This document shows, in pieces, positions 59,801 to 62,800 of a stretch of DNA of 64,000 nt. Where the stretch lies: the NCBI RefSeq assembly GCF_000026545.1, contig NC_011601.1, one strand, 5' to 3'. The stretch is from Escherichia coli O127:H6 str. E2348/69 (GTDB lineage Bacteria > Pseudomonadota > Gammaproteobacteria > Enterobacterales > Enterobacteriaceae). Position numbers: made by a program. Numbering within the stretch: the first letter of the stretch is position 1; each line of letters begins with the position of its first letter.

Positions 59801-62800
59801 GCTGCGCCTTGCGTCTGCCGTTCTGGATCACTGCCACCGAACCGGGCGCGTGCGTGCTGTGGTGCATCGTTCTGCTAACGCTGCTGAGGGAGGCCGCTAC
59901 GTTGGGCGGACGTGTGGTGTTAGCGTTACGAATCTAAGGGCTATGATTGGCAGCTATCGCAAGCAATACACTGGTATTGGCATGTTATATCCATAACTGC
60001 GGGGTAATAAACCCCGCCGAAATAGTAGCGTAGCCACTCAAACAGGAATGTTGTAGTAATGACAAATTGCATTAGTTAGTAGAGCTGGTGCAGCAGACGC
60101 TGCAATATTTAGCGTCCCCGCATATGCTTTACCAATCATATTTACAACCCACTTCCCAAGGCTATCACTGAAATTGTCCGGGGTAGTTGGGGCGGGTGAT
60201 TCTTGTATAGCTTGATGAAGGCTCTTAATATCTTCATCATTAGCGCCCCAATCCTTGAGCTGCTTTTCAAGCGAGTTGAAGTCTCCAGCGTTGACAGTAT
60301 TATTTTGTGAAATGTCCCCGTTACCAGAGCCAATAACGCCAGCATTGTTTACGTTGCCATGAATGTTGGTCACGTTATGGACAGTCATTGGCGCTACCTC
60401 TTTTTCTCTTAATGAAAACTGTAACCCTTCGCCTAAAATACCCTTTGACTCTAAGTCTAAAGACCAGTCGAGGATCTTATTCCTAACGGTAGTAATTACA
60501 TGTTCTAGTACACCAGCGCTTATAACCCATACCATCTCAGTCTTTTGTCCGATACTTTGAGCTAATGTATCAGCCATCCAATCCGGGAGAGGTAAAAAAG
60601 GGTTTTCTCCTTTATTGCTCATCTTTTTTATAGATGATATTGATTCTGTAATGTGAAACGTTGATACCATTGCATTTAATTCCGCGTCGTTGAAGTTGAC
60701 CACAAGCGGAACCCAGCTCTGATGTTGGGGACTATATGCTTTTAACTGCGATTGACCTTTCCTGTATTCAGGAACCGTATCAAAGCTGGGATAGCCATTT
60801 AATTCGAGCTGTATCCACTCGGTCAAATCGCTGAGGCCGAGCTTCACTGCAATCATTTTGGCCTTCATGAGTACAGATAAAATGTCGGAGTCGGGATCGC
60901 ACGCTAGTGCTTGAAGTTCAAGAACTGGTGAGTTAGCCATATCAAGACCTTAGTATTGTTTTGATAAGGTATCTTACCCGCATCGAACCATGCAGTCTAA
61001 GGTTCGCAGGCCAAACTCACCCATGAGTTAGATGTTTATTCCTTCATGCTGGATGAGTTCGACATACTTACCGATCTCTATAGGGGAAGCTGCATTTTTC
61101 GAGTAAGTTTTGAAGCTCTCTGTACTCCCGCGCTCATGACCGACGAGCAGGGCAATACGATCTTCTGGCACTTGAGCACGGTCGAGCTGTTGCACAAAAG
61201 CATGGCGGAGTGAGTGAAACACTTTTCTCTCTGCGGCAGGCTCGCCAAGAGCTTTACGCTTTGCTCGCGTGAATTGCTGCGTATGCCACGTTGAGCGCTT
61301 CCCATCGGCCCGGTCTGTTATTGATGCGTGATAGAACAGAAAACCGCTATGTGTGGTCTTGAGCAATGACTTCACGAGAGGGATTATCTTGCTGTGTACA
61401 GGGACGATTCGCGCCGCGCTCTTAGTCTTCCCCTCGGTGATCTCAAAGCACAATATACCCTCGATAGTTTTAATACTGCTTTCACGTAGCGTACATATCT
61501 CATTGATCCGCATACCGCTGTATGCACCAATAGCCGTTACCGCCTTCATCTCGTCATCAAGCAAGGCATAGACCTTTGCCAGCTCTCCCGGTGCGAAGAC
61601 TTCATAGCTGACCTTGCTGCTTTTTGCTTCGAGCGCATGACCGCGCCAAGGATTGTCCTGTGGTGCATCGTGATAGCGATTGCGTGCCAGATCCCATATC
61701 TGCGCCAGTGCGCTTATATAGTTTTGGATAGTTTGGGGCGCTCGCTCAGTTTTGAGCTTATCTAACCAGCCTGTAACTATGGTTCGGTTAATATCCCGCA
61801 ACTGAACATCTTTCTTTTTCAAGTGGGTTAACAGCACCTCTACGGCTTTGTTGGTCTTGGATAACGTGGTTAGCTTTCGCTTCTCGCTGTATTGAAGCAG
61901 GTACAAATCACGCATTTTTAGCAAGGAAGGGCAAGCCTGAATCGATGCACCAAACGATGCGGGGGCTTCCTTGGCGTACACACTGACACGGCGTAGCTCA
62001 TCAATGATTTGGTCTACAGATGAGCCGCCTTGTGGCTTTAGCAGATTCCGTAAGCGAGTCCATTCCAGAGCAATAGCATCTCGAAACAATCGCGCTTGGC
62101 GTATGTCTCGTGTTCCTGTGCTTTTCATAAAGTAGCGCTTCCCTTGGAACAGGTGGCGCATATAGCTGGGAATAGCTATCCGCACGAGGTAATTCCCGCA
62201 GGGATCTAAAACTAGATAACGATCTCTCTTGAAACTCATACAAACCCCGGTTATGTTGTCGGGGCTTTTTCATGGCTAAACAGTCTGTGAAATGTGCCGG
62301 GGTCATGAGCTTTAGTCTAGCTAGTTCAACAAGTTAACGATGATTGTTGAAGCAAGCTAAGTCGCTATAACCCGTGCCGGTTCGAGTCCGGCCTTCGGCA
62401 CCACATCGTATGCAAATCGAGTCGCTCAAGGGCGGCTTTTTTTGTGTCTGGGATCCATTAGTTACCTATCTTTCTCGCTATTTTAACTCTCTCAGAGCCA
62501 ACCAATTTCAACCCATCGCAAACGAAAAATGTTGGTACAGGCGTTGGTATTTTCGGTTCGATATTAATTTGTATTAGCTCAGTCCTGATCTGACAGCTAT
62601 CTGCCAGATCAGGTTCGGATTAATACATTATATCTGCCCGCCTACACCTTTAAACTTCTCAATAAACGCGACGATCTTCTGGAAAACCGTCTGTTTTTTC
62701 GTCTTATATTGCGGGTTTAACGGACTGAGTTTTGGCAATGTCTCGTTTAATTCCGTGCCATTTTCGGTGGCGTATTCGCGTTTTAAAGACGTGCGAATAT

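Follow-up and report, generated by a model that had tools for sequence, protein, structure and literature searches.

We examined a 64,000-nucleotide window of the genome of Escherichia coli O127:H6 str. E2348/69 (contig NC_011601.1), which is 100% identical to the chromosome of this enteropathogenic E. coli (EPEC) strain, and within it a single gene encoding a 300-residue protein with an AbiTii domain. Its best description is that of a single-gene form of AbiT whose presumed output module is uncharacterised, and it occupies a verified cargo hotspot in an unclassified, satellite-like island. A first-pass annotation, made from the DNA alone, had placed a 300-aa gene of abortive-infection type between the integrase gene and the end of a convergent operon, and an open reading frame (ORF) beginning with ATG lies exactly there (Table 1). 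The ATG is preceded 7 nt upstream by AAGG and corresponds to the same first residue in the homologues. The integrase gene is 87 bp upstream on the same strand, and the plus-strand gene that terminates the convergent operon ends 41 bp downstream. The G+C (GC) content across the AbiTii gene is 0.41-0.44 (exactly 0.430 for the gene), lower than in the operon on its left (0.53-0.56, with 0.55 for the backbone operon). The identification of the protein as AbiTii is not new, because RefSeq already carries that name for it.

Table 1. Features of the AbiTii locus and its host island (positions are those of the window).
Feature	Position	Strand	Remarks
tRNA-Leu(CAA) (leuX)	47258..47342	+	ARAGORN; last 31 nt (47312-47342) are attL
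Island	47343-62403		15,061 bp, between 31-nt tRNA-Leu repeats
Major head protein gene	57350..58345	+	phrog_267, 3.3e-64; 'capsid protein' in strain KFu019
Endonuclease VII-like gene	59571..59996	+	last of convergent operon, left hotspot flank; phrog_423 endonuclease VII, 1.4e-15
Swapped cargo cassette	59918..61049	.	~1.15 kb, GC 43%; includes last codons of both flanking genes
AbiTii-domain gene	60038..60940	-	300 aa + stop; WP_000013890.1, 'AbiTii domain-containing protein'; ORF list, Pfam, PADLOC, RefSeq
C-terminal four-helix domain, aa 216-300	60041..60295	-	no Pfam name; AlphaFold2 pLDDT >92
Conserved Asn/Gln/Gly-rich segment, aa 188-215	60296..60379	-	predicted disordered in monomer, pLDDT <50 in both models
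N-terminal AbiTii alpha+beta domain, aa 1-187	60380..60940	-	Pfam aa 6-186; AlphaFold2 pLDDT 82-97
Hypervariable insert of AbiTii domain, aa 61-150	60491..60760	-	12-35% identity vs 50-84% in flanks
Integrase gene, tyrosine type, 403 aa	61028..62239	-	phrog_1 integrase, 2.9e-35; RefSeq 'site-specific integrase'
attR, exact 31-nt copy of tRNA-Leu 3' end	62373..62403	+	direct repeat, exact identity checked

Searches with profile hidden Markov models (HMMs) identified a single Pfam domain in the protein, AbiTii (PF18864; independent E-value 5.8e-44), aligned over positions 3-187 of the 189 in the model, and the PADLOC AbiTii model PDLC02334 matched over positions 2-184 of 185 with an E-value of 2.1e-48. 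The AbiTii-like character of the N-terminus, which the first-pass annotation had proposed, is thus borne out over nearly the whole of both profiles. No NCBIfam model matched the 300-aa protein, and among the PHROGs there was only a weak match of the C-terminal 100 residues to the unannotated family phrog_16090 (1.4e-7). Homologues of the protein number 513 at E≤1e-3. In an AlphaFold2 model of the whole protein, calculated with 38 homologues (mean predicted local distance difference test score, pLDDT, 83.5), residues 1-187 form an alpha+beta fold of mixed helices and strands, residues 189-214 are disordered, and four helices follow. Nine residues of the AbiTii domain are invariant among the 38 homologues: W42, E46, Y50, P57, Y59, R60, W159, L163 and E164. 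The AbiTii domain was originally defined as an alpha+beta domain of approximately 180 residues with a conserved glutamate (Anantharaman et al. 2013, PMC3710099); the predicted globular fold and the invariance of E46 and E164 agree with this description, and one of these two is presumably the glutamate referred to.

Conservation along the protein follows a mosaic pattern, in which the poorly conserved insert of the AbiTii domain is set between well conserved flanks and the C-terminus is up to 95% identical between homologues. The fraction of sequences sharing the majority residue is 0.42 for residues 61-150, against 0.65 for residues 1-60, 0.71 for 151-187, 0.65 for the Asn/Gly-rich segment and 0.63 for the helical domain. 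The same mosaic is seen in individual pairs: one homologue (P0002) is 72, 30, 73, 93 and 95% identical to the E2348/69 protein over these five regions in order along the chain, and another (P0111), with a distant N-terminus (37, 12 and 41% for the three parts of the AbiTii domain), has a C-terminus that is 76% identical. This is the pattern expected from a recognition surface that diversifies on a fixed scaffold, together with modules that are swapped by recombination. Residues 61-150 are presumed to form the specificity or sensing surface.

The first-pass annotation had described everything beyond the N-terminus as rich in Asn and Gly and devoid of enzymatic motifs. The first part of this description holds for the short segment that follows the AbiTii domain, of which 26% is Asn and 16% Gly in the E2348/69 protein, but not for residues 216-300, which are conserved and are predicted to form a compact four-helix domain. 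Across the family the polar segment is enriched in N, Q, G, I, V, S and T, with few charged residues (N 17%, Q 10.5%, G 10.6%, charged 8%). The predicted helices of the C-terminal domain comprise residues 221-230, 235-247, 259-274 and 281-295. A second AlphaFold2 model, restricted to the C-terminal 115 residues and calculated with 61 diverse sequences, gave the same confident helical domain and left the polar segment disordered. The helical domain is acidic, with a net charge of -4, and W264, G266, K271, A272, G275, A284 and L288 are invariant or nearly so. As to enzymatic motifs, the description stands as far as tested: the C-terminus has no Pfam, NCBIfam or PADLOC match, and its invariant residue types (W, K, G, A, L and P) are not those of a catalytic site.

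A profile of residues 186-300, hereafter the C-terminal module, was searched among 1.84 billion representatives clustered at 50% identity and matched 1,821 clusters at E≤1e-3 (967 at E≤1e-10). The best 150 matches are mostly AbiTii proteins of about 300 aa; the AbiTii domain is absent from 45 of the 150, approximately 19 of which are complete proteins with other N-terminal regions. The module is carried by a 676-aa STAND NTPase (P0183; nSTAND1/AAA_22), and a further module-bearing protein (P0160) matches the PADLOC defence candidate PDC-M14B (6.6e-15). The remaining non-AbiTii N-termini of complete module proteins received no Pfam or PADLOC assignment. The module is mobile among different N-terminal domains: together, the polar segment and four-helix domain are found fused to AbiTii, to the STAND NTPase and to at least 12 unknown N-terminal domains, in several phyla. 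A Foldseek search of AFDB50 returned only members of the protein's own family, from Proteobacteria, Bacteroidota and Planctomycetota. Relatives of solved structure were found for neither part of the protein, either with Foldseek against the PDB (best E 0.58) or in HMM searches of PDB sequences, where the best match (E 0.013) was to unrelated proteins.

Proteins that consist of the C-terminal module alone were considered as possible phage decoys, and proved for the most part to be artefacts. One of these (P0122) is a disrupted gene, since it lies just downstream of an adjoining 146-aa AbiTii fragment; another (P0151) comes from a 557-bp contig, and many others begin at a conserved internal Met. 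On a marine metagenome scaffold (L022:2378-3345) the module forms a separate 114-aa ORF, overlapping by 4 bp the ORF upstream of it (208 aa, in no known family). This possible true split pair is either a natural split version of sensor and module or a frameshift.

The AbiTii gene occupies a slot beside the integrase gene whose content differs between sister islands. In blastn comparisons with these islands, backbone homology of 88-94% stops at 59894-59917 and resumes at 61050-61104; a segment of about 1.15 kb has therefore been replaced, with the AbiTii gene as its only gene. The GC content of this cassette is 0.432, compared with the 0.55 of the backbone operon, and the swap also replaces the last codons of both genes that flank it. 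About 52 of the genomes listed retain both flanks. In these the slot holds the E2348/69 AbiTii allele (5 genomes), a type II restriction-modification (R-M) system with its controller protein (1 genome), a 242-aa unknown protein together with a TIR-domain protein (2 genomes), a YafO-family toxin (5 genomes) or a 214-aa protein with no PADLOC match (about 38 genomes), and in 1 genome it is empty, so that the flanking genes abut. In every related island the endonuclease VII-like gene adjoins the slot. An AbiTii allele with 50% identity (P0058) lies in the same slot of the same type of island, at other chromosomal sites and in other Enterobacteriaceae. The integrase-proximal hotspot with variable cargo that had been suggested for this position is supported directly, because the same flanks hold different cargo in sister islands and because the P0058 allele is found in the same slot. 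Conserved flanks around differing cargo that includes known defence systems, the general mark of a defence hotspot on a mobile element, are both present here. The most frequent cargo, the 214-aa protein (WP_001547078.1; in E. coli WP8-S17-ESBL-12 at L004:8256-8900, minus strand), is a candidate defence gene.

The YafO-family toxin found in this slot in five genomes raises the question of whether the AbiTii gene is instead a toxin-like gene that stabilises the island by addiction, or has another function that serves the island and is not directed against phage. Such a role would also suit a probable shared transcript with int, from which the gene is separated by 20 bp in the P0058 island as against the longer gap here. 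However, toxin-antitoxin modules in integrase-proximal hotspots commonly act as defence systems themselves. Moreover, the cassette has no antitoxin-sized partner, and a hypervariable insert is the pattern of an arms-race sensor and not of an addiction module. For the two-gene AbiT system of Lactococcus lactis it is reported that toxicity in E. coli is seen with an AbiTi homologue and not with AbiTii, which is not an antitoxin either (PMC3985639). We consider an addiction function very improbable.

The 31-nt end of the tRNA-Leu(CAA) gene is repeated just beyond the integrase gene and therefore delimits the integrated island listed in Table 1. A further 27 nt preceding attR can be aligned to the body of the tRNA (62346-62403; 78% identity over the 58-nt repeat) and probably represent the decayed remains of the 3' half of the tRNA that was displaced. 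The island encodes a DNA invertase-like serine recombinase, a DEAD/DEAH helicase, many small proteins of unknown function, the major head protein, an HNH endonuclease, the endonuclease VII-like protein and the integrase. In PHROG scans of 19 island proteins the functions recognised were confined to major head protein, HNH, endonuclease VII, DNA invertase, helicase and integrase, with no match to terminase, portal or tail genes or to P4-type genes (psu, sid, delta, alpha-like). With a head protein among its genes and none of these matches, the island looks like a phage satellite, but it is not P4-like and could be assigned to no named satellite family. At the megablast level, 77 of 5,426 complete E. 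coli genomes contain the backbone or, as a minimum, its integrase.

Three further observations were made on the island and its surroundings. The helicase (52150-53994, plus strand) matches the PADLOC 'DpdF' model PDLC02858 almost end to end (1.9e-277), with no other Dpd genes near it; this model probably derives from the island-type satellite helicase subfamily and could give rise to false Dpd calls. Near attL, the region 47860-50884 contains a 182-aa gene of unknown function, a reverse-strand 230-aa gene (phrog_11802, unknown function) and the DNA invertase, with long intergenic gaps and mixed GC content, and may be a second accessory region. Just outside attR (62628-63935, minus strand, and beyond; L001:20729-33331) lies a defence island, comprising a type I R-M system (hsdR/S/M), a DUF4942 protein, McrBC, a phosphorothioate-dependent restriction endonuclease and an HNH pseudogene. 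As other strains have a second integrase gene after attR, leuX hosts islands in tandem.

Beyond the island, the E2348/69 allele itself is present in 5 of the 5,426 complete E. coli genomes, and related genes (approximately 37% identity) are found on 153 plasmids, most of them conjugative or mobilizable. A tblastn search of 50,697 phage genome records gave no match, and the module has the weak similarity to phrog_16090 described above. Carriage on plasmids and not on phages is consistent with a defence gene that is spread by mobile elements other than phages. In Klebsiella (CP154131.1, L005:4064-5912) a tandem pair of AbiTii-family paralogues (300 and 303 aa, with 35 bp between them) is situated directly downstream of the gene for a large serine recombinase, which is intact in L006 and L008; here the mobile context is a different one and the presumed sensors are duplicated. 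No neighbouring gene is conserved across three contexts, namely the E2348/69 island, the Klebsiella tandem pair and the P0058 islands.

These contexts bear on whether the E2348/69 protein might be merely the sensor half of a split system, with an effector (AbiTi-like or a HEPN RNase) encoded elsewhere in the genome. The characterised AbiT of Lactococcus (Bouchard et al. 2002, as summarised in PMC13064643 and PMC3985639) requires both of its genes, abiTi and abiTii, and the 4-bp overlap of the 114-aa module ORF with its 208-aa neighbour in the marine metagenome suggests that split forms may exist. The cassette, however, travels as one gene among islands and species and is accompanied by no conserved neighbour, and a PADLOC scan of seven other island proteins gave no defence match except for the helicase and three marginal, uninformative matches to the invertase. 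A split system of this kind therefore appears to us doubtful, and considerably less probable than a protein that is complete in itself.

We regard the AbiTii gene as a likely anti-phage defence gene, and we lean towards the more specific reading that it is one-polypeptide sensor-effector cargo, in which an AbiTii sensor is joined to a C-terminal effector. The assignment of sensor and output rests on architecture and conservation patterns, combined with published inference. The conserved helical scaffold (residues 1-60 and 142-187) would present the beta-rich hypervariable insert (residues 61-150) for recognition of a phage-made cue; by analogy with Lactococcus AbiT, this cue might be an early protein or one of the capsid. 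Recognition would be relayed through the conserved Asn/Gln/Gly-rich segment to the four-helix module, which would act non-catalytically, most plausibly by a self-association that harms the cell or blocks a step in the phage cycle, such that the infection is aborted. The module is taken to be the output because it stands where a HEPN domain stands in other AbiTii proteins and because it is shared with other presumed sensors, including the STAND NTPase. Since it has no catalytic signature, the module would probably act by regulated self-association, resulting either in cell damage, as in abortive infection, or in sequestration of a phage component; this mode of action is speculative.

Several points weigh against this sensor-effector reading. 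A full-text literature search for 'AbiTii' found no phenotype for any protein with the E2348/69 architecture. An AbiTii domain on its own is not proof of autonomous defence, because Lactococcus AbiTii alone was non-toxic and the system needs AbiTi. Consensus scans of the gene's strand found neither a sigma-70-like promoter nor an intrinsic terminator for the AbiTii gene, which is possibly expressed by read-through from int. Finally, the C-terminal domain is predicted to be a small, soluble, acidic helical bundle without catalytic residues and with no clear transmembrane segment (best 19-residue Kyte-Doolittle window 1.18), and it could be an adaptor or oligomerisation domain instead of an effector. 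The hydropathy of this tail window, the length of the helices (15-16 residues) and their confident globular packing also leave a transmembrane effector, which we had considered, unsupported.

A module without an enzymatic or membrane signature would also suit a direct, non-abortive inhibitor. In this case the AbiTii domain would bind a structural protein of the phage, for instance the major capsid protein, and the C-terminal module would do no more than multimerise the protein; the target would be sequestered and assembly would fail, but the cell would not be killed. An inhibitor of this type could also serve the satellite's own interference with its helper phage; the island encodes its own major head protein, and assembly-interference systems are known on satellites (Tai; PMC11364771). 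For Lactococcus AbiT it is further reported that production of capsid protein is affected and that escape mutations map to the major capsid protein and to early genes (PMC13064643). The slot in sister islands, however, is filled by generic defences (R-M, TIR, toxin), and thus its cargo is not tied to the capsid biology of the island, and the presence of the same module on a STAND NTPase is typical of the architecture of regulated cell death. Direct inhibition is, in our estimation, unlikely, although we give it more weight than either an addiction function or a split system.

As integrase-adjacent defence hotspots are already well known and the RefSeq name exists, the identification of the gene adds little in itself. 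What appears to be of wider interest is that the dominant architecture of Gram-negative AbiTii proteins is a single protein with an uncharacterised module, neither the two-gene AbiT nor the predicted HEPN fusion. Since this module is also joined to other presumed sensors, its action would explain a large defence family that is annotated and unstudied. The hypervariable insert offers a concrete, swappable candidate for the specificity determinant. The island is compact, encodes a head protein of its own and has a clean slot that is empty in some cases, which makes it a convenient natural system for finding more defence genes; the 214-aa cargo protein is one candidate.

In comparison with known systems, the E2348/69 protein shares with the AbiT of Lactococcus the AbiTii domain (PF18864 was built on the Lactococcus protein), carriage on a mobile element and an expected defence of the abortive-infection type. 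Unlike the AbiT operon of two genes, one of them encoding the toxic AbiTi, there is here a single gene: no abiTi partner is adjacent, given the short gaps on either side and the one-gene cassette, and none accompanies the gene in the two other contexts. Because this partner is absent, the protein is not part of a two-gene AbiT system. Compared with Lactococcus AbiTii, which is about 90 aa shorter, the E. coli protein appears to have in addition the Asn/Gln/Gly-rich segment and the four-helix module.

A parallel in design is provided by fusion proteins in which AbiTii, proposed to be an N-terminal phage-interacting module joined to alternative C-terminal effectors, is followed by the HEPN domain of the c2405 and Ymh families (PMC3710099). 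The E2348/69 protein has the same arrangement of an N-terminal AbiTii domain and a C-terminal module in one polypeptide. A HEPN RNase effector was nevertheless rejected, there being no HEPN or DUF4145 match, no invariant His or Arg in the C-terminus, whereas the four-helix HEPN domain of the fusions has a conserved His (Rx4-6H or a derivative), and no similarity to the presumed c2405 protein. The protein that we take to be c2405, from gene order and numbering, is WP_001120270.1 of strain CFT073 (390 aa, encoded seven genes after tcpC), which has an HHH_3 domain at residues 332-386 and a marginal DUF4145 match at 215-296 (E=1.2). Comparison of this protein with that of E2348/69 gave a BLASTP E-value of 0.25 and an hhalign probability of 0.1, and for want of similarity to it the E2348/69 protein is not considered a HEPN fusion. 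WP_001120270.1 is annotated as a ComEA family protein and is encoded in the CFT073 serU island (L018:27572-28744, minus strand), among genes for TcpC, TIR and macro-domain proteins; the Pfam AbiTii model does not detect its N-terminus.

The slot itself resembles the P4 psu-int hotspot and the accessory hotspots of phage-inducible chromosomal islands (PICIs), which are established slots for defence cargo (Rousset et al. 2022, PMC9122126), in its position next to the integrase gene, in the different defences held by otherwise conserved elements and in the integration of the element at a tRNA gene. It differs from the P4 hotspot in being flanked by the endonuclease VII-like gene and not by psu, and the island differs from P4 in its backbone of major head protein, HNH, endonuclease VII, DEAD/DEAH helicase and DNA invertase.

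A last comparison is with the amyloid signalling systems Bab/Agp of E. coli and BASS (10.1101/2024.11.07.622273; 10.1101/2020.01.06.895854). An amyloid signalling motif (RHIM, PP or BASS3-like) was rejected for the E2348/69 protein: the RHIM-type G-phi-Q-phi-G core is absent from all 61 module sequences examined, and, unlike the Bab/Agp gene pair, in which the two partners share the motif, the segment is internal to a single protein with no adjacent partner sharing it. The order of the parts is also reversed relative to Bab/Agp and BASS, with the segment internal and not terminal. In common with these systems, however, the protein has a small helical domain beside a short segment, uncharged and rich in Asn, Gln and Gly, which is predicted to be disordered in the monomer; the context is one of defence, and a STAND NTPase carries the module as well. 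It is conceivable, if rather improbable, that the polar segment and four-helix domain constitute a widespread non-enzymatic effector in which the sensor triggers templated self-assembly, possibly of cross-beta type. If so, the module would be a single-chain, reversed-order counterpart of amyloid signalling of the Bab/Agp type.

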